A DNA stretch of 64,000 nucleotides, from positions 19,444 through 83,443 of the forward strand of contig JBDWGM010000004.1 in the NCBI GenBank assembly GCA_039975755.1, in the 5' to 3' direction. The stretch is from Paracoccaceae bacterium. GTDB lineage: Bacteria > Pseudomonadota > Alphaproteobacteria > Rhodobacterales > Rhodobacteraceae. The notes under the pieces were generated by a model. The model did not search any database. It was not told where the DNA came from and saw only the letters and a program-made list of their open reading frames with translations. This document shows, in pieces, positions 48,271-62,112 of the stretch (positions within the stretch are counted from its first letter, which is position 1; each line of letters begins with the position of its first letter). The position numbers were made by a program, and so were the translations under genes.

Positions 48271-49380
48271 CTACATTGGTTCAATGGGCACCAGCTCTTT
48301 GCCATTCTTTTGGTGTCTTGCCAAAAGCTTGTTTACCAATGCCTGTTTCCGAACCGTGGGTCGCGCCGAACGTCCAGCTTGTTCCGTACCTTCTAGTTCG
48401 GGAAAAATCTCGAAAATTTCTTGACGCGCTTTATCAGTAATTGCCCGAAGTGCATTAGGCCCGGTTAAGAGACTCTCGGCAGGCGCTCCATTTGCAAAGA
48501 TGACCTGATGCTTTTCTAACAATATGTGTACGTAGCAAACCGGAGCAAACGAGATCTCTTGCTCGATGCCGACTGCTCCAACCAATTTGATTGCAGGGAT
48601 GAAGATTTCCCGTTGGCCGAACATGCGTTCCGCGATTTTGGAAACGGCGAGAAGGCGATGTTGAGGCGACACCAGAAGGTCGGTCTGTGGAACGCCCTCC
48701 CCCAATGCTCCTGCGCGAATGCGTACGGGTCGTAGATGAGGTGAGGCAACAAGTTGGGCGGTGGACAGGGTACGTTTGCCAATCCAAACAATCTTCTGTG
48801 CGCCATCTTGGGCAGTTATGACTTCGTCACCTATGGCCAAAGTTTCGATCTCTTGCTCACCACTAGGCGTGAGAACCCGCGTCTTTTTGCAAAAACAAAC
48901 AACCGTGTTCGTTATGGTGTTATTGAAATTTGCCTGATTGTAACGGTTAGGGAACGTGTTATCGAATGTGCCAAGTGTGATCGACTCAATCTGATCAGAA
49001 GCTGAATTGATACGGTTCGCTGCTCCACCGTTTACCAAAATAGCCTGCGTTCCGTCGCTTAAGGAGATCAGCTCAAGTGTCGCGTTCGAAGTGGAGCCAT
49101 CGGCGTAGGTAATCGTCGAACCGGTAAAACGATCGTTATCTGTCTGTGTGGTTGAAGCTTCGTCAGAGAAATCACCATCATCGTCGATATCAACCACTAA
49201 GCTGTCGCCGACATTCATAGCGTTGTTGCCGCCCGCCAGAGTACCGTCTGTTTGTATATTGAAGACTTGTCCAAGGTCGCTTGCAGAAATCAGGGTGCCT
49301 TCGGCGGCGGCTCCTCCAACGCTTAGCGCTGTAGGAAGGTAAAATCCATTGCCGACCAATATCACAACAGAAAACCTCAA
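48271..49380 (-). CDS. Hint (Hedgehog/intein-like) domain protein with a roseobacter-type N-terminal module
   Basis: The C-terminal half (VVCFCKKTRVLTPSGEQEIETLAIGDEV...LLVSPQHRLL...HQVIFANGAPAESL) is a Hint_2-type domain. It has a TTG start straight after an in-frame TAG. Confidence 0.8.
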   Translation of the reverse strand: MRFSVVILVGNGFYLPTALSVGGAAAEGTLISASDLGQVFNIQTDGTLAGGNNAMNVGDSLVVDIDDDGDFSDEASTTQTDNDRFTGSTITYADGSTSNATLELISLSDGTQAILVNGGAANRINSASDQIESITLGTFDNTFPNRYNQANFNNTITNTVVCFCKKTRVLTPSGEQEIETLAIGDEVITAQDGAQKIVWIGKRTLSTAQLVASPHLRPVRIRAGALGEGVPQTDLLVSPQHRLLAVSKIAERMFGQREIFIPAIKLVGAVGIEQEISFAPVCYVHILLEKHQVIFANGAPAESLLTGPNALRAITDKARQEIFEIFPELEGTEQAGRSARPTVRKQALVNKLLARHQKNGKELVPIEPM

Positions 49381-49605: not shown

Positions 49606-50133
49606 ATGGACTTGGTAGAAACAGCCAGACTTTACGCCCAAGCTGCACACCGTGCCGTGGGGCAAAAACGAAAGTACACCGGCGAGTGTTACACGGTACA
49701 CACCTTAGATGTCGCCGCGTTGGTTGCCAGCTTTGATGGTACTCCAGAAATGGTTGCAGCTGCGCATTTGCATGATGTTGTTGAGGACACGGCTATTGAA
49801 TTGGCGGATATCCGTGACGTTTTCGGTGAGGAAGTTGCTGATTTGGTTGACTGGCTTACGGATCGCTCAAAGCCGGAAGACGGCAATCGGGCTGTGCGCA
49901 AGGCCGTTGATCGCGACCGCTTGAGCACGGCTCCTGCTAAAGCGCAAACAATAAAATGCTGTGATCTCATCTCCAACACCACCTCAATTGTTGAGCACGA
50001 CCCAAGCTTTGCGAAAGTGTATCTAAGGGAGAAAGCTGAATTGCTTGACGTCATGACTTCGGCTGATCCGAGAGCAAGGGATGCGGCATTGCAGCAGGTG
50101 CCTACCCCAAAAGGGCAGCCCAATAACCGTTGA
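49606..50133 (+). CDS. HD-domain phosphohydrolase, RelA/SpoT-hydrolase-like (small alarmone hydrolase candidate)
   Basis: H..V(x)n AAHLHDVVEDT ... FGEEVADLVDWLTD matches the (p)ppGpp-hydrolase HD pattern. It is 175 aa and has no synthetase domain. Confidence 0.7.
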   Translation: MDLVETARLYAQAAHRAVGQKRKYTGECYTVHTLDVAALVASFDGTPEMVAAAHLHDVVEDTAIELADIRDVFGEEVADLVDWLTDRSKPEDGNRAVRKAVDRDRLSTAPAKAQTIKCCDLISNTTSIVEHDPSFAKVYLREKAELLDVMTSADPRARDAALQQVPTPKGQPNNR

Positions 50134-50285: not shown

Positions 50286-50636
50286 ATGCAATTTGCACCC
50301 GGAACTCATGTACTGCTGGACCTGTACGCCGCGCAATTCTTGGATGATTTAAGCGTCGTTCGCGAAGCATTATTAACAGCAGCCAATGACGTTGGCGCGA
50401 CCGTGTTGGACCAAAAATTTCACGTCTTTGGTGAGGGTTCAGGCATTACCGGAATGGTGCTGTTAAAAGAGTCGCACATTTCTATCCACACTTGGCCCGA
50501 AACCGGCTTTGCTGCGGTAGATATTTTCTTGTGCAGTGGTTTTTCACCTGACCCGGCAATCGCGGTCATAGAGGCCGCTTTTCAGGCCTCGCACAGTGAA
50601 GTTTCAAAAATTCATCGCGGCCAAAAATCTGAATAG
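50286..50636 (+). CDS. speH: S-adenosylmethionine decarboxylase proenzyme (small pyruvoyl type)
   Basis: 116 aa. GMVLLKESHISIHTWPE contains the Glu-Ser self-cleavage site of class 1 AdoMetDC. Confidence 0.8.
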   Translation: MQFAPGTHVLLDLYAAQFLDDLSVVREALLTAANDVGATVLDQKFHVFGEGSGITGMVLLKESHISIHTWPETGFAAVDIFLCSGFSPDPAIAVIEAAFQASHSEVSKIHRGQKSE

Positions 50637-50661
50637 TTTCTTTAACCAAGGCCATCACGGG

Positions 50662-52203
50662 TCATTCAAACCAAGCATCCCAACCGTCCTGATAGTAATG
50701 AACGAGCGCATGAGATTGAATAGTATTCAGATCGGCGGGAACGCGAGCTGTGTCTGCTGCAAAAACCTGCGCCTGTTGCCAGATTTCTGGGGTAAGATAG
50801 CGCAATCCCTGCGGCCAAACCAAATCACGTTGGGCGGGTTCATAAGGCGACACAAGCACAAAGCCCCATTCCCCAAAGCTTGGCACATAAGCGCGATATG
50901 GACGCACATATAAAGCTTGCAAGGCGCTCATGGGGTTCCGCGTACCTTCCCATGTTTCAATGATCGACCAGAACGCCTGTCGCGCAAAGAAAGGTGAACC
51001 CGCTTGGGTCACGAGAACACCGCGCGGCGACAATCGTTCGATCAGAATCGCGTAGAATTCGGTCGAGTACAGCTTGGACAGCGACAAATTTTTGGGATCG
51101 GGAAGGTCAACAATGATAACATCAAAAGTCGCATCGGTTTCTTCGGCAAAATTCCAGGCATCTTGATTGATGATACTCACCCGTGGATCGGACAGGGCCT
51201 CATCATTCAGATGCTTTAGTTGGGCATGATCACGAAATAGCTCGGTGACACGTGGATCTAGGTCCACGAGCGTAACCTGCGACACATCCTCATATTTCAG
51301 CACTTCGCGCGCTGCCATGCCGTCACCGCCGCCAAGTATCAACACGTCCTCATTTCGCGAGGCTTGTGCAAGTGCGGGATGGACCAACATTTCATGATAG
51401 CGATACTCGTCCGCAGAATCGAATTGGATCGAATGATCGAGAAACAAGCGTGTGCGATCGCGAAACCGCGTAACGGCGATGTTTTGATAAGGCGTCGTTT
51501 CTGACAAAATCAGGTCATCTTGAAACAATGCGGCATCTGCCACAGACACCAGCCGTTCCGATTGCACCAGCCCAGCCATCATCAGAGCAAATGCACCTGC
51601 GCATACAAATTTGAGAGTGGAATTGATCCGATCCCGAAACATGGCAATGGATACACCCGCCACGATTAAGTTGAGACAACCAAACACTAAGCTTGCAGAC
51701 ATCAAGCCAAGGTGTGGCACTATGAAAAGCGGGAACGCCAACGACGCAATCAACGCGCCAAGATAGTCGACACTGAGCACGTTTTCGAACCGAAACCGCG
51801 TGGCTCCGATGTCTTTAAGAACGCGCGCAATCAACGGAATTTCCATGCCTGACAGCACGCCAACACCGCCCAGCATAAGGTAAAGAAGAAGTTGGACTTC
51901 TCCGGTCAATGCATAGGCTGCGTAAACGACGGGAGCCAGAGCACCGCCGACAACGCCCAATGCGACCTGCACCCGCACAAAGCCCTGCAAAGCATCGCCC
52001 GTGAATCGCGAAAGCCAGGCACCAACGCCCATAGTTGCCAAGAATACACCGATCACAAAACTGAATTGGCGCACAGAGTCACCAAGCAGGTAGCTCGATA
52101 ATGTCGCGGCGATCAGTTCGTAAATTAGGCTCGCAATCGCCACAAGCCAAGTCGCAAGCAGCAACCAAATAGCCTGCTTGCTCTGGGTCGTGTCAGATTT
52201 CAT
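50662..52203 (-). CDS. Membrane-fused polyamine aminopropyltransferase (spermidine-synthase-like)
   Basis: The N-terminal ~200 aa are multi-pass membrane helices. The C-terminal domain has the ILGGGDG, VDLDP and IIVDLPDP spermidine-synthase motifs. Confidence 0.8.
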   Translation of the reverse strand: MKSDTTQSKQAIWLLLATWLVAIASLIYELIAATLSSYLLGDSVRQFSFVIGVFLATMGVGAWLSRFTGDALQGFVRVQVALGVVGGALAPVVYAAYALTGEVQLLLYLMLGGVGVLSGMEIPLIARVLKDIGATRFRFENVLSVDYLGALIASLAFPLFIVPHLGLMSASLVFGCLNLIVAGVSIAMFRDRINSTLKFVCAGAFALMMAGLVQSERLVSVADAALFQDDLILSETTPYQNIAVTRFRDRTRLFLDHSIQFDSADEYRYHEMLVHPALAQASRNEDVLILGGGDGMAAREVLKYEDVSQVTLVDLDPRVTELFRDHAQLKHLNDEALSDPRVSIINQDAWNFAEETDATFDVIIVDLPDPKNLSLSKLYSTEFYAILIERLSPRGVLVTQAGSPFFARQAFWSIIETWEGTRNPMSALQALYVRPYRAYVPSFGEWGFVLVSPYEPAQRDLVWPQGLRYLTPEIWQQAQVFAADTARVPADLNTIQSHALVHYYQDGWDAWFE

Positions 52204-52427
52204 TAGGATAAAATGACGGCCGAGATGATTAACGACAATGAAATGAAGACAGAAGCAATCAAAATCGCCAGCGCTACGTTCTGATCTGTCTCAATCTCTT
52301 TGATGATGGGGAATGGAGAAAATGTACGGATCACCCACCAGCATAGGCATAAGATAAAGATCCCGATCAGTGAAAAAATGAGCGTCGAGAGTATCTCTGC
52401 TCCTGAAATTTCGGCAAAAAGTTCCAA
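52203..52427 (-). CDS. DUF350 (YjfL-like) small membrane protein
   Basis: 74 aa with two TM helices around a PIIKEIETDQNVA loop. TTG start with AGGAG 7 nt upstream. Its stop overlaps the next ATG (TAATG). Confidence 0.7.
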   Translation of the reverse strand: MELFAEISGAEILSTLIFSLIGIFILCLCWWVIRTFSPFPIIKEIETDQNVALAILIASVFISLSLIISAVILS

Positions 52428-52437
52428 CTTTAATCTC

Positions 52438-52593
52438 CTATTTCACGCGACCATTTATGCCGCCACCAACTCCGCCAATCCTTACAGATCGATCCAAGTC
52501 TCTGCTTTCCTGCCATACGCTGTTGATCGACAGGTAGTACCCGCCAGCCAACGCACACACTGCCAGAATAATGAATATTGCGCGCGCGATCAT
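52438..52593 (-). CDS. Unlisted 51-aa single-TM protein with a Gly-rich tail
   Basis: Hand translation: MIARAIFIILAVCALAGGYYLSINSVWQESRDLDRSVRIGGVGGGINGRVK*. The ATG abuts the upstream stop (TAGATG), and its own TAG overlaps the SD of the DUF350 gene. Confidence 0.5.
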   Translation of the reverse strand: MIARAIFIILAVCALAGGYYLSINSVWQESRDLDRSVRIGGVGGGINGRVK

Positions 52594-53883
52594 CTAGTCA
52601 TCGCTCCAATCGCTGTGGCGCATCCGTCGATATTGGTGAACCGTGGAGCGTGCGATGTGATAGATACCAAAGAGCGCAAAGACCAAAGCGATGAATTGCA
52701 ACCAACGGCCATTGGTCACGCCTTGTCGCAAGCGCAAGGTCACGTTACCAAGTGGGGCGCCCTGACGCCCCCATGTATCAGCCTCTAGCAAATCGACTTC
52801 GACCTGATAGGTGCCGGTCTTACGGGGTATAAAGCGCAGAGCTGAGGTCCGACGTCCTTCACTCCATGCGCCATCACTGTCGCGGCCGGAATAACGTTCC
52901 ACGGTGCGGCCAGCCTCGAAGACCGGTACATCTTCTGGATCGGTGACGTGTACTCCTAAATATGCCCAGCTGTTGTTCACATCAGCACCAACTTGGATGC
53001 GGGCAAGCCGATCCTTTTCTGTAATCTCAAAAGCGATTTCTTGCGGCAGTTCGCTTACATTGAACGTCCAGTTCTGGCCAGAACCACCACCCGGTGATCC
53101 AATGACGGTAACAGACATAACCAGCGCAATCACAGCGAATACAAATGATGAAATCGCAAAGAATCTTTGATGAGGTCCGGGCGAAAAGGGCTTTAGGACA
53201 TTGAAACCCGTGGACTTAGGTGGGTTCTGAACACCGAAGGATGCGTATACCTCTGCCGCTGACACATACTCTGTGCGCAAGACTTCTTCTTCAGTTGCCG
53301 ATTTACTGAAATCGAGCATCGCAGTTTCGCCCAACATTGAAACGCTTGTCGTTTCTGCACCAATCTCGGGGCGCCAATTGAACTCGCCTTCGACGAAACT
53401 AATCTCGGCCGTTGACGTTTCGAAATAGGAAAATGTTCCCTCAGAATTACGCACCGTTGGGCGTGTCTCTGCTGTTTCAACGCTTGTAGGCGCGATCCAA
53501 GCTGGTCGGGTATAGCCACGATAGCGGCGTGTAAAACTTAGGTTTCCGTCCTCAACCGTCAGATAAGCATAGCCATGAGTTGGTGAAAACAATTGATGTT
53601 CGACCCATGTCCAAACTCGTCCGCCCCATCGTTCTGTCATGCCGAGCTTGCCGATAACGGTAAAAGACACCGCATTGATTTCACCCGTCATCCCAATCGA
53701 AAAAGGAGTATTAGGGCGTTCAAGGTCCGAAAATTGACGAAGCACCGCAAAATTGTCTTGGGCATCCAGTTCGGAACCGCAATAGCCACATACCATGACT
53801 TGCACTCGGCCGCCGCCAAGAACATCCAAACCTGCACCACAAGAGTTACAGTTTATTGATTTGATATCAGAGTTTCGGGTCAA
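52594..53883 (-). CDS. Zinc-ribbon + DUF4178-like domain membrane protein
   Basis: CNSCGAG...CGYCGSEL ribbon, then a DUF4178-like block (FSIGMTGEINAVSFTVIGKL...WTWVEHQLF...YLTVEDG). There is a mid TM helix (FFAISSFVFAVIALVMSVTVIG) and a C-terminal TM helix. Confidence 0.65.
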   Translation of the reverse strand: MTRNSDIKSINCNSCGAGLDVLGGGRVQVMVCGYCGSELDAQDNFAVLRQFSDLERPNTPFSIGMTGEINAVSFTVIGKLGMTERWGGRVWTWVEHQLFSPTHGYAYLTVEDGNLSFTRRYRGYTRPAWIAPTSVETAETRPTVRNSEGTFSYFETSTAEISFVEGEFNWRPEIGAETTSVSMLGETAMLDFSKSATEEEVLRTEYVSAAEVYASFGVQNPPKSTGFNVLKPFSPGPHQRFFAISSFVFAVIALVMSVTVIGSPGGGSGQNWTFNVSELPQEIAFEITEKDRLARIQVGADVNNSWAYLGVHVTDPEDVPVFEAGRTVERYSGRDSDGAWSEGRRTSALRFIPRKTGTYQVEVDLLEADTWGRQGAPLGNVTLRLRQGVTNGRWLQFIALVFALFGIYHIARSTVHQYRRMRHSDWSDD

Positions 53884-54494
53884 GATCTGGTCTCTATCTT
53901 GAGGTTATACTGGTCAAGCCAGGCACCAGTATACCAATCTGGATCACCTGTGGAAAATTCCCCGGATAGCAGCGTATCATCGTCGCCCTGGCAGTTAATG
54001 AATTCATACTTAGAGCCAAGCTGAAGAGCCTCCGGAAACTCTCCCCGAAATGCGATGCATGTCGCGGTATCCTTTTCCGTTACTCTGTAATTTGTCTCGG
54101 GGGTGGTCAGGGAATCTCCCAGCTCTGGGGGCGTCTTGATGCTTGGCGCATCGTCGGGAGACAAAGGACGCTGAACGATCACGTCTCCCTCGTCGACCGA
54201 AATCCAAACTTCTTCGCCACGGTCCGTAACGGCAAAAAACTCATCCCACCAACCGATGCCGTAACTAAAACGCGCATGACCCATCACGTTATAGGTTTCT
54301 GCACCGAAACTCACGGTTTCACCGACCTGAAACAACAACGGAGCATCATGCATTTCGCCACTCGCCCCCGCGTCGCGCAAATGGCCTGAGTCAATATACA
54401 AGGTGGTCTGACACGACGCACAGGTGGTCATTTTGGCCGTGGCAAAGCGCGCGTCCTGGATATTTCCGCAATTTGGGCAATTTAGATCAGCCAT
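53880..54494 (-). CDS. Zinc-ribbon + DUF4178-like domain protein (soluble)
   Basis: CPNCGN...CASCQT ribbon, then FQVGETVSFGAETYNVMGHARFSYGIGWWDEFFAV...VWISVDEG. Its stop overlaps the next start by 4 nt. Confidence 0.65.
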   Translation of the reverse strand: MADLNCPNCGNIQDARFATAKMTTCASCQTTLYIDSGHLRDAGASGEMHDAPLLFQVGETVSFGAETYNVMGHARFSYGIGWWDEFFAVTDRGEEVWISVDEGDVIVQRPLSPDDAPSIKTPPELGDSLTTPETNYRVTEKDTATCIAFRGEFPEALQLGSKYEFINCQGDDDTLLSGEFSTGDPDWYTGAWLDQYNLKIETRS

Positions 54495-54769
54495 AAAGGA
54501 GGACTAAACCCCGCCGTGTTTCATGTCCACAATCAAGACGTTAGAACGACAATTTTGTACGTTTGTTCTAGCAGTTTAGAATACACCGCATGAAGATATT
54601 TGAAACGTCGATTGAGATCTGAACACCCGCATTCGAGCTGTTTCGGATTAGCGAAATGTTGGCTGAACGAGCTGTAGAGGGCTGACAGCATTGCTCATTT
54701 CGGTCAGACTTCGCCTAAACAATTTGTGTGTTTAAGCTTCTGCAATCGCAAAAGGTATGAGCAAGTAAA

Positions 54770-55216
54770 ATGCAAAACGAAGTTAGAATAGTTGACGCGT
54801 TCGGGGAAGTCTTAAAAATTCATAAGGTCTCGGAGGGAAAGGACCAGTTTGAAGGCGTCATATGGGAGGGTGTGTATCTTGCTTGTGCTCAACTTGAAAA
54901 GGCCAATTTCAAAGGAGCGGATTTGTATTGGGCCAGTTTCTTCCTTGCTCACCTGAATGGGGCCAACTTCCAAAATTCCAACCTTCAAGGTGCCGATCTA
55001 AAAGAAGCATCATGTGTCGGAGCAAACTTTCGCAGGGCCAACCTAGGTAGAGACAATCTTGGCGGCAGTTCGCAGTTGCAAGGTGCTGACTTGACCGGCG
55101 CCATTTTGAACCGCGCGCGCCTCGACGGGGCAGAATTTGACGAGCACACCAAGTTTCCAAAAGGATTTCATCCGCTATCGTACGGCATGGTCGAAAAAAC
55201 GTCATCGGAACGATGA
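54770..55216 (+). CDS. Pentapeptide-repeat protein
   Basis: Runs of A(D/N)LxG-type pentads (ANFKGADLYWASF..LNGANFQNSNLQGADLKEASCVGANFRRANL...LQGADLTGAIL). Confidence 0.85.
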   Translation: MQNEVRIVDAFGEVLKIHKVSEGKDQFEGVIWEGVYLACAQLEKANFKGADLYWASFFLAHLNGANFQNSNLQGADLKEASCVGANFRRANLGRDNLGGSSQLQGADLTGAILNRARLDGAEFDEHTKFPKGFHPLSYGMVEKTSSER

Positions 55217-55509
55217 ACCGATATCTCCGCAAAGCTAAACTACGCTGCCATAAATGAGGTCTCCGGGTTGCTATGCCCGTAACATTTCCACCTTGTTGCA
55301 ACATCTGTTTACTGTTCCGCTGCCTAGTTCCTGACCACGCCAGACCTCGTTCAACAACAAGGAACGAGGTTACATCGTGTGAGGCATAAAAACGTGTTGC
55401 GGATGGTGCCTTCATTGTGTTTGCAGATGGAGGGCGTTCAACCGGTGCTGGGCGCATTTGATTGCTGTTTTTGCGGATCATTAAAAAGCCAATCTGGGAT
55501 AAGACACAT

Positions 55510-56796
55510 ATGATCGACACCACCGCCTCAATTTCAAATACCACCCGCACCATAGTGGTGGGTGGTGGTATGGTGGGGATTGCGACGGCTATTTGGGCGG
55601 CTAGGTCGGGGCAAGCTGTTACATTGATCGACAAATCCACGCCCGAGGGCCGCGCCAGCTTTGGCAATGCGGGGGTTTTGGCCTCGTCATCTGTTTTGCC
55701 CGTAACGATGCCGGGCTTGACTGGAAAATTGCCAAAGATGTTGCTCGATACATCCGAACCGATCTTTGTGCGCTGGCCCTATCTGCCGCGAATGATCCCA
55801 TGGGCCTTGCGCTTTCTCTCCCATGCAAATGAGGCAGACACCCGCCGGATCGCCGCCGCGCTCGCACCGATCATTGGCAATAGTCTGGACGATCATCTGG
55901 CTTTGGCCGAAGGCACCCCTGCCCGTCCTTTCATCAAACCCTGCGATTTTGCTGTGCTCTTTCCGGACCGTGCAAGTTTTGCCAAAGATGGCTTGTCCTG
56001 GGACATTCGCAAACATCTGGGGTTCAGCTGGCAAGAGATCGAAGGCCAGGCGCGCAAGGACTACGACCCATTGTTCCCCAACCAATTTGATTTTATTGCC
56101 GCTTTGCCGGGCCATGGCCGTATCACCGACCCTGGCGCTTATTTAGAGGCGCTTCGCGATCATTTTGAAGCGTCCGGAGGGCAGATCATTGCAGGTGAGG
56201 TCACCGATATCGTCCACACAAACGGGCGCGTGAGCGGTGTCATGACAGATCAAGGCCTGATCGATGCGTCCTGCGTGGCGATTACAGCCGGGGCGTATTC
56301 GCCTTTGTTGACGCGAAAACTGGGCGTGCACATCCCGGTCGAGGCCGAAAGCGGGTATCATCTTGAGTTCTGGGAGCCCTCGCACATGCCGAAGGTGCCG
56401 ACCATTGTCCCCAGCAGCAAGTTCATCTTGTCACCCATGGAGGGGCGTTTGCGCGTGGCCGGAGGGGTCGAGTTTGGTGGCCTTGGTAACACAGGGCGCG
56501 AGGTTCCATTCGCTGCATTGAGGAAAGGGTTGGATAAGATCTTGCCCAACCTGAGTTACAGTCGCGAGACCCGTTGGATGGGCCATCGCCCGGCGCCCAC
56601 GGATTCCGTGCCGATCATCGATGAGCTGCCGCATATCAAGGGCGTGTTCTTGGGCTTTGGCCATCAGCACGTAGGTTTAACCGGCAGCGCCCGTACCGGG
56701 CAGCTTTTGGCAAATTTGATGCAAGGCCTGAAGCCAAATATCGACCTGTCGCCATACGCCGTTACGCGCTTCTACCGGTCAGCTCGTCGGGCGTAA
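55510..56796 (+). CDS. FAD-dependent oxidoreductase (D-amino-acid-dehydrogenase-like)
   Basis: The IVVGGGMVGIATAIW dinucleotide-binding motif follows the ATG at 55510. Length and the C-terminal GFGHQHVGLT block fit the DadA/DAO family. Confidence 0.8.
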   Translation: MIDTTASISNTTRTIVVGGGMVGIATAIWAARSGQAVTLIDKSTPEGRASFGNAGVLASSSVLPVTMPGLTGKLPKMLLDTSEPIFVRWPYLPRMIPWALRFLSHANEADTRRIAAALAPIIGNSLDDHLALAEGTPARPFIKPCDFAVLFPDRASFAKDGLSWDIRKHLGFSWQEIEGQARKDYDPLFPNQFDFIAALPGHGRITDPGAYLEALRDHFEASGGQIIAGEVTDIVHTNGRVSGVMTDQGLIDASCVAITAGAYSPLLTRKLGVHIPVEAESGYHLEFWEPSHMPKVPTIVPSSKFILSPMEGRLRVAGGVEFGGLGNTGREVPFAALRKGLDKILPNLSYSRETRWMGHRPAPTDSVPIIDELPHIKGVFLGFGHQHVGLTGSARTGQLLANLMQGLKPNIDLSPYAVTRFYRSARRA

Positions 56797-56993: not shown

Positions 56994-59900
56994 TTAAGTT
57001 GCCGAAGCGTGAAAAACGGCTGCGTTCGAGAGTTTTAGTTCGGTTTTTGCGGCATACATGCGTACCTCTCGTCGGGTCAGCACAGTAGCGGCGCGAGGGT
57101 AGTTTATAAAATCAAGGCCTTGAGTTGGGTCCAACTGAAGCGCGCGCAGCAGAAATTGTCGTTGCGCCGGAGCCAACATCCGCATTGCTTGCGGGCCGGG
57201 GTAAAAGCTCTCGCTGGCCCGGCCTTGGGATGTCAGGACGACATGTTCTTTGCAACACAGGTGAATGTAGCTGACGGCATCGCGATTGCATGCAAATGAC
57301 GCAAGGCGCGTTTCTTCGGCGAGGTGACGCGCACGCGCAAAGACGGTTTGTCCATCCGCCAAAGTCATCAATACGCAATGTTGCGGTGAGACCAAAATTG
57401 GTTTTTCCGCACTCCCTGGGTCGGGTTTAAGTCGCACGGGCGTATGTTTCGGATCACGCGTTCCGGCCCTAAGCGCCAAGTCCGTTCGGCTGGTCCAGAC
57501 CAGTGATTGAGGAACACCTAGATACGTGCACACCAAATCACCAGCGCGCAGAGTTTCGACCGGACGTGCACCAGAAGGTGTGTCGATCAAAGTGCCTGAC
57601 GTGAAACAAGCAACCCCTGTGTTGTCAGTCGTCAGATCTTTACCGTTTGATAGGCCGTCGAAGGTTAAACCTTCATTGGTGCCAAAGCGGTCTTTGCCTG
57701 AGTAATCAACAGTCCCGGCCCCATCGTCGCTGTTGCTTTGGTTCAGAACATTGTCGTCCGCTAAATCTTCGCGCAGATCAAAGATATTGTCATAGAAATT
57801 AGTCAGATCGATGAAATCGTTGTTGGTTGTATCATCATCATTCAGAGCACCGGTGTTACCAGTGTTGAAATCCGCAATCGTATCCGCGCCATCCCCAACG
57901 TTATAGATGAATACGTCGTTGCCAGAGCCGCCACTGACGACGTCATCGCCGACATCGCCACTGACAGTGTCACTCCCTTCCCCTCCGAAAACGCTGTCGT
58001 CGCCAGAACCACCTTCGACCAAGTCGCTGCCGTCTTCGCCGTCGACGGTGTCATTGCCAGTTCCACCAAAAAGCGAGTCACCTTGCAAACCACCATCAAT
58101 ACTGTCGTTGCCCGCGCCCCCATCGATCGTATCATTTCCAGAGAATGTTCCGCCATGAAGGGTATCGTCGCCATCACCGCCTATAATAGAATCATCGCCA
58201 TAACCGGCATCGATTGAATCGTTGCCGCTGCCGCCATCGATCGTGTCACCGCCATTGCCGCCGAAGACTGTGTCGCTGCCGCCCCCTGCATCGACAACGA
58301 TGCCCTCACGGTCACCGAAAAAATCGTCAAAAACGTCCGTGGCATCAACAGAATCCGACTGGTCCGACAGAAAGATGCTTTCGACGTCATCAAAGGACAG
58401 TGTGTCACTGCCATCCGTAATCGTTCCATCTTCTTCGGTGATATAGGTCACTGTGACAGGACCGGTCAGGGCAGTCAGATCAAGGACATCATTGTCCGAG
58501 GCGCTGTTACCGCCGATGATGACGTCATTGCCAAACCCGTCCTCGATGATAAATCTATCGCTGCCATCGCCGCCGTCTAGTGTATCTGCACCAAGCCCGC
58601 CATAGATCGTGTCATCGCCGGCATCCCCACCGATTCCATCGTCACCCGCATCACCGTGAATTTCGTCATTCCCAGCACCGCCGCCAAGCCCGTCATTACC
58701 ATCGCCACCAAAAATCGTGTCATTTCCATCATCGCCGCCGATCCCGTCATTCCCAGCACCGCCGTAAATCTCGTCATTGCCCGCATTTCCGCCGATCCCG
58801 TCATCGCCATCGCCACCAAAAATTGTGTCGTCACCGTCTCCTAGGCCGATATTGTCGACCCCTGCGCCCCCAATATAGACGTCATCACCCGAGGTGCCGC
58901 CGGTACCGTCCTGACCATCGCCCGAGATAATGAAATCACGAATACCGCCAGTATCTGCAAAGAAATCCGCGGCATCTGTGCCAATGCGCAGATCGAACAC
59001 ACCGTCTGCAAATTCAATCTGTTCAAAGTTGCTGATGGTGTCGGCGCCGCCGTCATTGACTGTATCCGTGATGATGATAGTCGAACCATCGATCTCATAG
59101 GTGTAGTCCAGATGATTGCCGGAAAAGACGACGCGGTCCTCTACCCCATCGCCACCGTCCAGATTATCGTTGCCATCCCCACCTCCGATCTCGTCATCGC
59201 CAGCTCCACCTTCTAAAGTATCCGCGCCGTCGCCGCCTGAAATGGTGTCATCCCCGGCACCACCCAAAACCGAGTCGTTGCCACCGTTTCCTTCCAGGGA
59301 ATCCGCGCCATCTCCACCCTCTAGTGTGTCAGCGCCAGAGCCACCCAGTATTGTGTCATCGCCCGCACCGCCCAGAACAGAGTCGTCCCCCTCATCCCCT
59401 TCCAAGGAATCAGCCCCGTCGCCACCGTCTATTGTATCGGCACCCTGACCGGCGCTGACTGTGTCATTTCCTGCACCAGCCTCAATACTGTCCGCTTCAT
59501 CGGTAATCGCATCAGCTTGATCATCAGAAAAACCAACAGGCATTGAATCTGCGCCGGCTGTCCCATCGACGGTGCCATCCGTTTCGACAAAAGCCCCAAC
59601 CTGGCGTACACTGTTCATCCCGATCGAGGTATTTGTGACCAATGTATCCAACGTGATCGAACGGATCGCGTCAGCCTCTAATTTTACCTGATCCGAATTG
59701 TAGAAACGTTCGGGGGCCAAATAGAGATTACCAGCAGTGTCCTGAAAAATAGTCGCGCTTGATAACGTATCGGTACTGCCGTCGGCATACGTGACAGTGG
59801 CACCGTAAAAAGATATGCCATCAAACGTCTGATCTGGGCCGCCATCAATGGTAAACGTTTCGTTGGCGACGTTGTTATTCATTTCGTAAAGTTGAGAGTT

Positions 59901-60089
59901 TGCGCCTCCGGTAAATGACACGCTGCCCGGTGCAAAGGTTTGAATATTCGCAGCAAGCGGATCAGAGATAGATCCAAAAGTGTCGCCAACGATTACGTTG
60001 GCGTTTCCGGCAGTGTTACCCCCTTCGACCGCATCTATGGGCGCTGTGTTTCCAAGATAGAAAACACTGAATGTCGTACCGCTTACCAT
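56994..60089 (-). CDS. Large RTX (GGxGxD Ca-binding repeat) protein with a C-terminal Hint domain
   Basis: 1031 aa: N-terminal module (aa 1-~200), three RTX blocks, then GVACFTSGTLIDTPSGARPVETLRAGDLV...ILVSPQHCVL...HVVLTSQGRASESF (Hint_2-type). Confidence 0.85.
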   Translation of the reverse strand: MVSGTTFSVFYLGNTAPIDAVEGGNTAGNANVIVGDTFGSISDPLAANIQTFAPGSVSFTGGANSQLYEMNNNVANETFTIDGGPDQTFDGISFYGATVTYADGSTDTLSSATIFQDTAGNLYLAPERFYNSDQVKLEADAIRSITLDTLVTNTSIGMNSVRQVGAFVETDGTVDGTAGADSMPVGFSDDQADAITDEADSIEAGAGNDTVSAGQGADTIDGGDGADSLEGDEGDDSVLGGAGDDTILGGSGADTLEGGDGADSLEGNGGNDSVLGGAGDDTISGGDGADTLEGGAGDDEIGGGDGNDNLDGGDGVEDRVVFSGNHLDYTYEIDGSTIIITDTVNDGGADTISNFEQIEFADGVFDLRIGTDAADFFADTGGIRDFIISGDGQDGTGGTSGDDVYIGGAGVDNIGLGDGDDTIFGGDGDDGIGGNAGNDEIYGGAGNDGIGGDDGNDTIFGGDGNDGLGGGAGNDEIHGDAGDDGIGGDAGDDTIYGGLGADTLDGGDGSDRFIIEDGFGNDVIIGGNSASDNDVLDLTALTGPVTVTYITEEDGTITDGSDTLSFDDVESIFLSDQSDSVDATDVFDDFFGDREGIVVDAGGGSDTVFGGNGGDTIDGGSGNDSIDAGYGDDSIIGGDGDDTLHGGTFSGNDTIDGGAGNDSIDGGLQGDSLFGGTGNDTVDGEDGSDLVEGGSGDDSVFGGEGSDTVSGDVGDDVVSGGSGNDVFIYNVGDGADTIADFNTGNTGALNDDDTTNNDFIDLTNFYDNIFDLREDLADDNVLNQSNSDDGAGTVDYSGKDRFGTNEGLTFDGLSNGKDLTTDNTGVACFTSGTLIDTPSGARPVETLRAGDLVCTYLGVPQSLVWTSRTDLALRAGTRDPKHTPVRLKPDPGSAEKPILVSPQHCVLMTLADGQTVFARARHLAEETRLASFACNRDAVSYIHLCCKEHVVLTSQGRASESFYPGPQAMRMLAPAQRQFLLRALQLDPTQGLDFINYPRAATVLTRREVRMYAAKTELKLSNAAVFHASAT
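57909..59480 (-). repeat. Three blocks of RTX nonapeptide-coding repeats
   Basis: By my residue count the blocks span aa ~204-316, ~400-512 and ~600-727 (GGAGDDTILGGSGADTLEGGDGADSLEG etc.). Each block ends in a hydrophobic capping segment (DRVVFSG, DRFIIEDGFGNDVI, NDVFIYNVGDGADTIADF). Confidence 0.8.
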
Positions 60090-60849
60090 AGTTACCTCAC
60101 TTATTTACCCTAATTTCTTACGCTTAATTCCACTGTTTCAGATGTGCTGGGATGGCAGTCTCGATCGATTGCCGACATGCTTTTTCGTCGCCAAACCCTG
60201 CGGGCAATGTCCGATGATCCCTTGGTTCCGCCACATCCCAAGCAACCGAGTGGTTCCAGCAAGCCAAAGACCTGCAATCCATAGGTTTCGTGATTTGTGT
60301 ACTGCGCTGACCGAAATCGTCTTCATGGCGCATGACAGTATCGCAGCAAAACTTGCAGTTGACTTGGCGCGACAGCCAAACAAAGCCGATGGGCAGATCC
60401 CGCGTAGATGCGCGGATGCTGCGCGGTTTATTAGCAGAAAGTTAAACACGATGCCCCTTACCTAAAGATAGAAATATTATTCAGGTGAGGAAAAAATCGG
60501 GTTACTATAAGCTGTTCCAGATCAAACGTTTTTCAGATTAATTGATTGAGTTTTTATTTAAATTCCTAGGGAAAAATTAATCTTTGGAAATGGTCGCGGG
60601 GTGTCACGCCACCCACCCGGACGCCTGCAGCTGTATTGCCAGCACAAGACACCCAACGCTGCGATCTGTACCGCATCACAGGTAAAGATCGCGCGTGCGC
60701 AGAAACCTCAAGCGTCTCTGGTCAGAGAACGTGATTTACGGGTTGCCAAACCTGATACAATTCGAACATTGTTCCATTATGGTGACCGCAATTTCTGCGA
60801 AAACTGAACTTGATAAGCAATGCATTTCGTCAAATCGAACGGGGAAGAA

Positions 60850-61356
60850 ATGTCTAAAGAAGAGCTTGAAAAATACAGAACCGCTTTGGTCGATCTATAT
60901 AAGCGCACACGTGTCCTTGACTACTCGCCAGAAGAATGTGCTGAACCTTTCACGAAAGAAACTATTGAACTTACCATAGCAGACATAAAATCAATAAAAA
61001 CAAAATCCGGTGTCATCCGAGGGTTCCTCGATTTTGATGAAAATCTTCGGCATTCTTCGGTTAATCGTTCCGATCACGGTACCGACGAATGTCATCAAAG
61101 CGCGATTAGTGAAAGGAAAAAAGTTGATGAAATATATCAGTACATTTACAAAACATACGGCATCGATATTTATGAATTTGCCGCGAAGAAGAACAAAAAG
61201 ATTCAGAAAATTATTCAGCGCGGCAACATCGAAACCATCGCAGAATATCGCTTGGTACACGACTTTCTTAGCGACCTTCCCACCGACGGCAACATTGCAA
61301 GCGTGACTGCGATCAACAAAATGATCTCTGATTTCGACAAGAAGCATGTGGAATAA
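60850..61356 (+). CDS. Hypothetical protein in the AT-rich island
   Basis: ORF 60820..61356. The internal ATG at 60850 (MSKEELEKY...) has GGGGAAG upstream. It is Lys/Glu/Ile-rich and helical-looking, with no motif I recognise. Confidence 0.45.
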   Translation: MSKEELEKYRTALVDLYKRTRVLDYSPEECAEPFTKETIELTIADIKSIKTKSGVIRGFLDFDENLRHSSVNRSDHGTDECHQSAISERKKVDEIYQYIYKTYGIDIYEFAAKKNKKIQKIIQRGNIETIAEYRLVHDFLSDLPTDGNIASVTAINKMISDFDKKHVE

Positions 61357-61429
61357 GTGTTATGATTTGTGTACACTTGTCTGACCCAGATGACGTCATC
61401 AGAACTGCGTGTGAAAGAGGACAGGTAAA

Positions 61430-61819
61430 ATGAGCCATTCCGTTTTTCCGAAACTGCCGCTGGAAGAGATGACACGAGATGCAGCGCTTCCGGGCGAGGA
61501 GAATATTGATAAAAGAATACGTGCAAATTATGCTGCTTTATACAATGAAACTGACGAATTTTTTGTAGATTTACTTTGCAAATCCTTCGATGCTGATGAT
61601 AATTTTAAATCAAGGGATTGGGTCTACAACCTGTATGAATTGTTTATGCAAGTATCAGGATCAGCCTATGGCGCTAAATTAATTATTTATAAATTTGAAG
61701 AAGTACAAAAAACCGATAAACGATATATCGAAATTATAGAATCTCTCGTTGATCTATCCAGTAGAATAGAAAAGATAGACGCTTCGTTATTTTACCACAG
61801 TAAAATAGAATATTTGTGA
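61430..61819 (+). CDS. Hypothetical protein in the AT-rich island
   Basis: 129-aa ORF with AGGACAGG upstream. It has very low GC, is acidic and helical-looking, and has no motif I recognise. Confidence 0.45.
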   Translation: MSHSVFPKLPLEEMTRDAALPGEENIDKRIRANYAALYNETDEFFVDLLCKSFDADDNFKSRDWVYNLYELFMQVSGSAYGAKLIIYKFEEVQKTDKRYIEIIESLVDLSSRIEKIDASLFYHSKIEYL

Positions 61820-62112
61820 TGTTGAAAAAATGCCAGAGTAAGAAGTGGAATGCGGGCAAGCCGCAACGATCAAAGATCCTGAAATCTCTGCTTTGAAGGC
61901 AGTCTCAAAAATACCGCTCTCTTCAAAAAAAATCGATTACAAGTGCATTAAAAGAACTGCAGCACAGCCCAAGCGAGAAATTTGACCTTGGCCACCAGAT
62001 CGCACAACAAAAACCTGAAAGAGATACCAAATGTGATGCATATCGATGATGCGCGGTGGTGTCGGGGATGAGGATGGCGTAGGCTGGTTGAATTCTTAAC
62101 TATTCTTACCGT

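Follow-up and report, generated by a model that had tools for sequence, protein, structure and literature searches.

A micro-protein with an invariant C-terminal lysine is conserved beside a membrane-fused aminopropyltransferase in a widespread bacterial gene block

Within a 64,000-nucleotide stretch of a Paracoccaceae bacterium assembly (GCA_039975755.1, contig JBDWGM010000004.1), hereafter called the window, positions 50,286 to 54,494 hold five minus-strand genes that face a gene for an S-adenosylmethionine (AdoMet) decarboxylase (AdoMetDC). The data presented here indicate that the locus represents a widespread system reduced to its minimal core, composed of the AdoMetDC, two zinc-ribbon (ZnR) DUF4178 proteins, a micro-protein with a Lys-ended tail, a DUF350 protein and an aminopropyltransferase fused to a seven-transmembrane (7-TM) domain. 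The micro-protein is a real conserved gene product, and the terminal Lys is its only invariant residue. As the best explanation of the whole, we tentatively favour, with a little less than even confidence, the use of decarboxylated AdoMet (dcAdoMet) from the cytoplasm, across the membrane, for the aminopropylation of this Lys. The open reading frames (ORFs) of the locus, with their lengths in amino acids (aa), and the intergenic stretch next to them are as follows.

53880-54494, minus strand: soluble ZnR-DUF4178 protein of 204 aa, gene 1 of the operon, matching PF13785
52594-53883, minus strand: ZnR-DUF4178 protein of 429 aa with two transmembrane (TM) helices, TTG start, matching PF13785
52438-52593, minus strand: micro-protein of 51 aa, an N-terminal helix followed by a Lys-ended tail
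52203-52427, minus strand: DUF350 half unit of 74 aa, TTG start, matching PF03994
50662-52203, minus strand: 7TM-aminopropyltransferase fusion of 513 aa, matching NF002956 and PF01564
50286-50636, plus strand: predicted class 1b AdoMetDC (SpeH/SpeD type) of 116 aa, matching PF02675 and TIGR03330
54495-54769, no strand: upstream intergenic stretch, common with a divergent pentapeptide-repeat gene; presumed promoter site

A representative search with the fusion protein yielded 15,925 matches, 975 of them (clusters at 50% identity) at E <= 1e-30, and a diverse alignment was built. By scanning one genome per species with the transferase alone we obtained 80 loci from about 14 lineages, and upstream genes were counted in the 72 loci having at least 2.7 kb of upstream sequence. 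A DUF4178 gene lies upstream on the same strand in 58 of the 72, and in 55 of these 58 a DUF350 gene immediately precedes the transferase. AdoMetDC is found in 35 loci, and in 30 of the 58 it leads the operon on the same strand. Among the lineages represented are Acidobacteriota, Bacteroidota, Rhodobacterales, Campylobacterota, Melainabacteria, Myxococcota, Chloroflexota, Gamma- and Betaproteobacteria, Bdellovibrionota, Desulfobacterota, Rickettsiales and Clostridia. Because retrieval by the transferase alone turned up the same ordered block in 58 of 72 loci, we conclude that the arrangement is not due to chance. The DNA stems from a Roseobacter-group member of the Paracoccaceae. The nearest homologues, 95% identical, come from metagenome-assembled genomes (MAGs) labelled Paracoccaceae or Roseobacter, and an exact-sequence look-up of the 513-aa protein returned no record. 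All five genes are found, with unchanged order, in Leisingera thetidis and in near-identical contigs, where some annotators call the gene of 51-52 aa. A previous sequence-only reading of this DNA had taken the five minus-strand ORFs for a single coupled unit and the AdoMetDC for its functional partner; the gene order kept across these lineages, the junctions described below and the leading position of AdoMetDC in the related operons all agree with it.

That reading had passed over the micro-ORF as incidental, yet no other gene here proves as informative. The 51-aa product consists of an N-terminal hydrophobic helix and a Gly/Ser/Arg-rich tail ending ...SVRIGGVGGGINGRVK, in which the terminal Lys (codon AAA at 52441-52443, stop at 52438-52440) is the single Lys of the protein. 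It has in common with the Leisingera micro-protein the helix, an ESRDLDxSxR motif and the ...VK end, the neighbouring proteins being about 46% identical. In nearly every locus, the slot between DUF4178 and DUF350 is occupied by an ORF of 44-72 aa with a single N-terminal hydrophobic helix and a low-complexity tail rich in Gly, Ser, Arg, Tyr and His. The tail ends in ...RVK or ...RIK in Rhodobacterales, ...YGK in Campylobacterota and Gammaproteobacteria, ...GGK in Acidobacteriota, Myxococcota, Syntrophales and Clostridia, ...HHK or ...YHK in Bacteroidota, Melainabacteria, Rickettsiales and Bdellovibrionota, and ...SGK in Chloroflexota.

An ORF-picking rule blind to the last residue retrieved a K-ending ORF in all but three of 58 loci; in these three the rule had chosen the wrong ORF, and one that ends in K exists there as well. 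In the formal count, such an ORF was found in 60 of 62 loci, whereas on the reverse strand, taken as control, 2 of 41 ORFs end in K, the background being 4-5%. The terminal K is the sole invariant column in a diverse alignment of 43 sequences, where a Ser-[Val/Ile]-Arg motif and a Gly past the helix are semi-conserved, and it is the only tail lysine in 19 of the 43. When 5.8 billion proteins were searched with the profile, 1,076 clusters were retrieved at E <= 1; every one of the best 120, which had been called independently by public pipelines, ends in K. Starting in reverse from one micro-protein homologue, we recovered DUF4178, the micro-protein, DUF350, Spermine_synth and Amino_oxidase. 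No model in Pfam or NCBIfam covers this family. At the nucleotide level the terminal Lys is encoded by AAA in 40 cases and by AAG in 19, all three stop codons are used, and the spacing to the next gene varies, Bacteroidota included. Since both Lys codons, all stops and variable spacing occur, the constraint acts on the protein and not on a ribosome-binding site, and a cause of the latter kind was ruled out on the same grounds.

The 513-aa protein matches NF002956/PRK03612 over residues 5-511 (607.2 bits, cut-off 472) and PF01564 Spermine_synth over aa 267-451 (E 1e-38). Its AlphaFold2 (AF2) model, with a predicted local distance difference test score (pLDDT) of 94.3, has seven TM helices (~9-213) followed by a complete SpeE fold (~228-513). 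Foldseek aligned the model with 1uir, 6bq2 and 3anx (template-modelling scores 0.72-0.79, root-mean-square deviation ~2 Å). According to both Foldseek and phmmer, the nearest enzymes are the Thermus triamine/agmatine aminopropyltransferase, Pyrobaculum SpeE and plant thermospermine synthase, all of which accept long acceptors. Among the top 50 Foldseek matches only the SpeE part was matched, with no relative of the 7-TM domain. The signatures ILGGGDG, VDLD, QDA, VDLPDP and YHE are present. In 48 members of the family, Q240, Q260, Y269-H270-E271, GGGDG (G291/G293), D314/D316 and D348, as well as the catalytic pair D366 and D369, are invariant or conserved in at least 90%, and the residues conserved in the membrane domain are E29, E121, P123, D146, Y147 and N178, of which E29, E121 and D146 are invariant. 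Because the binding and catalytic residues are conserved, the attack of a primary amine on dcAdoMet should be intact. Specific to the family is R268, beside the catalytic Tyr: it is kept in at least 90% of members, while the two solved enzymes aligned with it, Pyrobaculum 7xif and Thermus 3anx, have Tyr or Ile at this position. R268 may serve as a lead for carboxylate recognition, and no more than that. The mycobacterial speE is presumably also of the membrane-fused type; a literature search on Rv2597-Rv2601 gave nothing useful.

The loops of the 7-TM domain carry on average 11.1 Lys+Arg on the N-terminal side and 2.7 on the transferase side, with the same bias in 48 of 48 sequences. This positive-inside bias places the N-terminus inside and therefore the transferase domain outside. 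Thus, the catalytic domain, which had previously been assumed to be cytoplasmic, is predicted to lie on the outer side, and we consider such a location probable. The micro-protein has a net charge of about +1 before its helix and about -0.4 after it, with Lys/Arg before the helix in 34 of 43 members; it looks like a signal anchor or a signal peptide, and one Myxococcota member has a lipobox (FSGC). In addition, a flavin amine oxidase of ~540 aa (PF01593/PF13450), missing from the window and seen in other phyla, directly follows the transferase in 32 of 55 loci (within L020-L083; for example L046:11590-13266, L074:11506-13026 and L085:8932-10557). A twin-arginine motif (SRREFL, NRRQFI, TRRDLL) is found in 19 of the 24 oxidases with a placed FAD motif, followed by a lipobox in about half; several further oxidases have KR or RK variants of it. 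This suggests that, in the oxidase-bearing species, the aminopropylated product is oxidised in the periplasm. Loop charge, the micro-protein signal and the twin-arginine translocation (Tat) oxidase are three independent indications, each a prediction from sequence, of the periplasmic side.

Further genes accompany the block in some lineages. A Band-7/SPFH protein with a C-terminal SHOCT domain is encoded upstream of AdoMetDC in 15 loci (L062:6555-7565, L059:6658-7638, L074:6175-7182) and is missing from the window. In 17 loci the amine oxidase is itself followed by a polytopic membrane protein of ~370 aa, which has no Pfam match and a conserved DV[AS]HVY[ST]TLFRTY motif (L049:13160-14275, L028:13471-14535, L077:13146-14192). 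In the Campylobacterota loci L012, L013, L015, L017 and L018, a pyridoxal phosphate (PLP) decarboxylase of the ornithine/arginine/diaminopimelate (Orn/Arg/DAP) type, ~355 aa long with a weak Pfam match and possibly of the carboxyspermidine-decarboxylase type, is found directly after the transferase (L015:8864-9931).

The other products of the operon were analysed in the same way. Hidden Markov model (HMM) searches recovered AdoMet_dc, Spermine_synth, DUF350 and, twice, DUF4178, all above curated thresholds, in line with the domains previously read from the sequence. Specifically, the 204-aa protein matches PF13785 with 69.5 bits (gathering threshold 25) and has no TM segment; the 429-aa protein matches it with 41.1 bits against the same threshold, and its AF2 model (pLDDT 88) places two TM helices at 239-262 and 393-421. 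It has 397 full-length homologues of ~430 aa, and in an alignment of homologues the cysteines of the CxxC...CxxC ribbon (C12, C15, C32 and C35) are invariant, together with EGEF 165-168, W306, G325-R326 and R420. The two zinc ribbons and the two helices of the longer protein, both proposed earlier, are well founded. The predicted layout of the 429-aa protein is a cytoplasmic ribbon/beta part, a TM helix, a beta-sandwich (~270-387, predicted periplasmic), a second TM helix and a basic-then-acidic tail, which fits a membrane-spanning complex; no basic residues stand in the beta-sandwich just past the first TM helix. The polar residues conserved in the cytoplasmic domain (H96, H103, E111, R119 and E165-G-E-F) and the residues conserved in the predicted periplasmic one (W306, G325-R326, Y331, W340 and E342) suggest specific binding sites. 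Sequence searches of the PDB with both DUF4178 proteins gave nothing significant, only weak eS27-type ribbons at E > 0.1. Foldseek with the 429-aa model returned generic beta-sandwich or jelly-roll folds only (GOLD, CBM, subtilase C-domains; query-normalised template-modelling score < 0.2), from which no function can be read.

Related loci have a counterpart of the 204-aa protein (~205 aa) in the corresponding place, unless it forms part of the following gene. Such a fusion of both DUF4178 genes, giving a single protein of 630-718 aa, is seen in 14 loci, therefore the two units act together. Fusions occur in many Acidobacteriota, Myxococcota and Bacteroidota and in one Clostridia MAG, the loci concerned being L024, L025, L039, L041, L048, L055, L072, L073, L077, L079, L081, L084 and L085 (for example L085:5051-6973). 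The 74-aa DUF350 protein matches positions 5-65 of the 133 of the PF03994 profile (40.2 bits against 26, E 4e-10), and its two hydrophobic segments make it a single 2-TM half unit. The AdoMetDC matches PF02675 (E 4e-32) and TIGR03330 (114.2 bits, cut-off 75.65), carries the KESHISIHTWPE motif with the Glu-Ser self-processing site, and holds the same position in close relatives of the locus. We predict it to be a class 1b pyruvoyl enzyme acting on AdoMet; on AdoMet versus Arg or Orn as substrate, see PMC10407285.

All six ORFs and the four junctions were checked directly in the sequence and are present. The TTG start of the 429-aa gene sits in a TTGA and gives a 4-nt overlap with the stop of the 204-aa gene (53880-53883). 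The same MTR... start is found in 24 of 24 aligned homologues, and Leisingera has ATGA at the equivalent junction; for both reasons the TTG start is credible. The ATG of the micro-ORF (52593) directly abuts the TAG of the 429-aa gene (52594), a TAGGAG runs across the micro-ORF stop (52438-52440) with the DUF350 TTG (52427) 10 nt further on, and a TAATG overlap at 52203 couples the DUF350 and 513-aa genes. The AdoMetDC gene is convergent with the 513-aa gene, their ends being separated by 25 nt. The stretch 54495-54769 holds no further operon ORF upstream of the 204-aa gene. A scan of the region for promoter and terminator consensus sequences gave matches not above the shuffled expectation, with no sigma-70 match within 54495-54769; the operon promoter is unlocated, because consensus matches do not exceed chance.

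Putting these elements together, we propose the following mechanism. The cytoplasmic AdoMetDC would produce dcAdoMet, and the 7-TM domain (E29, E121, D146) would hand it to the transferase domain at the periplasmic face, which would in turn put one or more aminopropyl groups on the epsilon-amine of the C-terminal Lys. The product, peptide-Lys(N-epsilon-3-aminopropyl), would contain a spermidine skeleton attached via its N8-side and would differ from a peptide-spermidine amide by the alpha-carboxylate. Under this proposal the Lys must be terminal, because an aminopropylated C-terminal Lys would mimic the peptide-spermidine amide. The inner membrane would thereby carry, tethered to its outer face, a cation resembling spermidine, and the DUF350 and DUF4178 pair would act as a membrane-spanning scaffold or as regulatory subunits. 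The C-terminal Lys as acceptor is itself a tentative assignment, leaning slightly to the doubtful side. The more specific version, with extracytoplasmic aminopropylation of the C-terminal Lys of an anchored micro-protein and dcAdoMet passed across the membrane by the 7-TM domain, we regard as doubtful.

Several points weigh against this proposal. No use of dcAdoMet outside the cytoplasm is known, and its transport by the 7-TM domain is putative. If the positive-inside prediction were wrong, the tail of the micro-protein and the enzyme could end up on opposite sides of the membrane. The 513-aa protein reaches only 33 bits with NF037959 'MFS_SpdSyn', for which the cut-off is 40. In the GGK subfamily only, the Gly-Gly codons (GGAGG) double as the Shine-Dalgarno sequence of the next gene, and two loci (L058 and L069) have DUF4178 and DUF350 yet no K-ending ORF. 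A terminal Lys may also serve another end: Braun's lipoprotein is attached to peptidoglycan via its C-terminal Lys. In addition, 14-16 loci have the transferase without adjacent partners, and at the thresholds used no residue separated transferases with an adjacent micro-protein from those without. In favour of the proposal, on the other hand, the 16 transferase loci without adjacent DUF4178/DUF350 are also without a K-ending ORF (L026, L029, L030, L032, L036, L038, L042, L050, L061, L063, L066, L067, L068, L075, L076 and L078); the partners of these orphan transferases may be encoded elsewhere in the genome.

Loci of this kind, with enzymes indistinguishable from the others, are what would be expected if the acceptor were an envelope molecule other than a protein, or else a free amine in the periplasm, such as a phospholipid head-group, an amine of lipopolysaccharide (LPS) or peptidoglycan, or an exported diamine. 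The micro-protein would then be a structural or regulatory subunit, with its Lys as a pseudo-substrate plug or a Braun-like peptidoglycan anchor. Any extracytoplasmic amine would suit both a transferase predicted to be periplasmic and the Tat amine oxidase, the PLP decarboxylases of the five Campylobacterota loci hint at a small diamine, and links to membrane structure have been proposed by Ravi et al. (2024, mSystems; PMC11237479). Nevertheless, this explanation does not account for the fact that the sole invariant residue of a fast-evolving protein is a terminal amine beside an amine-alkylating enzyme. Neither an L,D-transpeptidase nor a lipid-modifying gene is conserved in the block, and the family spans very different envelopes (Clostridia, Chloroflexota, Bacteroidota, Melainabacteria). 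As to a Braun-type role in particular, the terminal Lys is present, a lipobox is found in 1 of 43 members, and no transpeptidase gene is conserved in the block. Overall, we judge a non-protein acceptor of this kind to be somewhat unlikely.

An ordinary membrane-anchored polyamine synthase, working on a cytoplasmic free diamine to give spermidine, thermospermine or a longer polyamine, perhaps coupled to export and with the other genes as accessories, appears decidedly improbable to us. It would agree with the equivalog match to NF002956 (607 bits) and its NCBIfam name 'polyamine aminopropyltransferase', with the complete catalytic site, the adjacent AdoMetDC and a fold nearest to that of free-polyamine enzymes. 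On the other hand, the positive-inside bias places the domain outside the cytoplasm, and the strict linkage to four non-metabolic membrane or exported proteins would be left unexplained. In work of 2019 (Biochem J 476:2579), Li, Kurihara, Kim, Liang and Michael reportedly found class 1b AdoMetDC co-occurring with membrane-protein/SpdSyn-like fusions and DUF350 where spermidine is absent; the fusion is said to fail to complement an E. coli speE mutant, and non-putrescine aminopropylation to have been proposed. For our own proposal this comparison has its weak side, as the fusions tested there are not confirmed as PRK03612-type orthologues. According to PMC12803844, experiments have shown that bacterial fusions of membrane proteins with aminopropyltransferase-like domains play no part in making spermidine or spermine.

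The sequence-only reading had tied the operon to envelope stress, and a sensor or repair module of the PspA/IM30 type can indeed be imagined, with the ZnR-DUF4178 proteins as sensors and aminopropyl transfer as the output. The related Shewanella operon has PspA and CesT/Tir (PMC11237479), Band-7/SPFH-SHOCT proteins are encoded upstream in 15 loci, and the 429-aa protein has a sensor-like topology, with its predicted periplasmic beta-sandwich between two TM helices. These associations, however, are found in other genomes only. The precomputed Pfam annotation of the neighbours in near-identical loci and in Leisingera lists no PspA or DUF2170 (CesT/Tir), neither PspA nor Band-7 adjoins the operon in the window or in its close relatives, and both are missing from most of the 58 conserved loci; for this last reason the core works without the phage-shock-protein machinery. 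The window ORFs were also searched by phmmer for the amine oxidase, for Band-7, for the membrane protein of 371 aa and for E. coli YjfI/J/K/L/M/C; none was found, in a search insensitive enough for the YjfL query to miss even the window's own DUF350. We regard a stress module as improbable, and it would be compatible with the other mechanisms rather than exclusive of them.

As for the surroundings of the operon, a pentapeptide-repeat protein (54770-55216, plus strand) is encoded divergently from it and is followed by a DAO-family FAD oxidoreductase (55462-56796, plus strand). The latter adjoins the operon also in L001 and L002, and not in Leisingera. On the other side, the AdoMetDC gene is immediately preceded on its own strand by a gene for a small stand-alone HD_4/SpoT-type hydrolase-domain protein of 175 aa (49606-50133, plus strand), which does not occur there in L001 and L002, contigs of 95% identity. 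Two genes for Hint_2-domain proteins, at 48271-49380 and 56994-60089 (both minus strand), flank the locus at distances within ~2.5 kb, and one of the products, of 1031 aa, has ~10 RTX calcium-binding repeats. Both are probably secreted self-processing proteins unrelated to the operon. Finally, positions 60001-62000 have a GC content of 0.43, compared to ~0.53 elsewhere, and the ORFs 60820-61356 and 61430-61819 within them have no Pfam match; this stretch may be recently acquired DNA.

The operon type had been presented as undescribed, which no longer holds: Ravi et al. catalogued operons combining a 7TM-spermine-synthase, DUF350, DUF4178 and a small exported protein, with variants including Band-7-SHOCT, AdoMetDC and a polyamine oxidase, and proposed 'aminopropylation of other substrates', with Li et al. 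2019 as their source for this as well as for the AdoMetDC linkages (PMC11237479). For this reason the system is noticed and unsolved, not undescribed. Lysine is not mentioned in that paper. The naming of DUF4178 as YdjH-like needs correction as well, as B. subtilis YdjH is given there as a TPM-domain protein (PMC11237479). The locus almost certainly belongs to this known cluster type, of which it is a PspA-free and oxidase-free minimal variant. To our knowledge, and within the literature searched, the new elements are the invariant C-terminal Lys, the strict linkage that ties the micro-protein to transferase, DUF350 and DUF4178 genes, the location predicted for the transferase outside the cytoplasm, and the acceptor hypothesis; the acceptor itself had been left open before, and in this we agree.

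In any case, membrane-fused aminopropyltransferases with a dedicated AdoMetDC are encoded across a wide range of bacterial lineages. If the acceptor hypothesis is true, it would represent a bacterial post-translational modification of a new kind, in which a protein bears a tail resembling spermidine, as well as the first extracytoplasmic use of dcAdoMet, and would give a purpose to 'polyamine-independent' AdoMetDC. A cation at the C-terminus could affect the charge of the envelope and the resistance to cationic antimicrobials. If it fails, the locus is still a well-conserved member of a known, unsolved cluster.

The proposal can be compared with several known systems. With SpeD/SpeE and the long-acceptor enzymes (1uir/3anx, 6bq2) the transferase has in common the fold and the catalytic and dcAdoMet-binding residues, and it differs by the additional N-terminal 7-TM domain, the predicted extracytoplasmic site and the family-specific R268. 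Polyamine-like chains on the epsilon-amine of Lys occur in hypusine on eIF5A and in the lysines of diatom silaffins; those cases are eukaryotic or archaeal, involve other enzymes (deoxyhypusine synthase, with spermidine as donor) and concern internal lysines. In Dlt D-alanylation, as reportedly described by Schultz, Snow and Walker in 2023, a conserved C-terminal residue of the micro-protein DltX receives the group outside the cell. Our proposal likewise has a cytoplasmic donor, a polytopic enzyme, a single-pass micro-protein and added positive charge in the envelope, by analogy only: the families are unrelated, and the Dlt acceptor is a Tyr hydroxyl on a transient carrier, whereas a stable N-alkylation of Lys is proposed here.

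Among the catalogued clusters, that of Shewanella oneidensis (SO_3763-3767) reads LipoSIG+Ctha_1186+low-complexity, YjfL, TM+Spermine_synth, CesT/Tir, PspA, DUF4178 and RHH (PMC11237479). Common to it and the window are the 7TM-spermine-synthase fusion, DUF350, DUF4178 and a small exported low-complexity protein directly before DUF350; the likening of our micro-protein to Ctha_1186 is by position and description, not by sequence. The window is without the CesT/Tir-PspA dyad and the RHH regulator, and it has two ZnR-DUF4178 paralogues, one of them a 2-TM protein with a predicted periplasmic domain, placed upstream and not after PspA. Furthermore, its DUF350 is a 2-TM half unit, in contrast with the 8 TM of the Shewanella protein, and its small protein is TM-anchored, whereas the Shewanella one is a lipoprotein.

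The last comparison concerns E. coli, in which YjfC and YgiC are now named peptide-spermidine ligases (Pederick et al. 2023, cited in PMC11762307). The yjfIJKLMC cluster encodes DUF350 (YjfL) and the exported DUF1190 lipoprotein YjfM (L087:8388-9026), whose Gly/Ser/Arg-rich tail ends ...RGHWGG, followed by YjfC; in tolC-ygiBC, the DUF1190 lipoprotein YgiB (L088:3745-4416) ends ...SRSMGG and is followed by YgiC (positions are those of E. coli K-12). The C-termini of YjfM and YgiB are candidate substrates of the ligases, though the latter look cytoplasmic. A micro-protein-family HMM finds no similarity to YjfM or YgiB, so that the relation is one of analogy, not homology. There, the tails end in Gly-Gly and an ATP-grasp enzyme ligates spermidine to a carboxylate; here, the tail ends in Lys, and alkylation of its amine by dcAdoMet is proposed. 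Both the yjf cluster and the window encode an exported tail-bearing protein near DUF350 and an enzyme that joins, or in the window would join, a polyamine-type group to a peptide, and the expected products are near-identical. This suggests that the window shares with YjfM/YjfC and YgiB/YgiC a common logic, namely a polyamine-like cation on the C-terminus of an exported protein, with DUF350 nearby.

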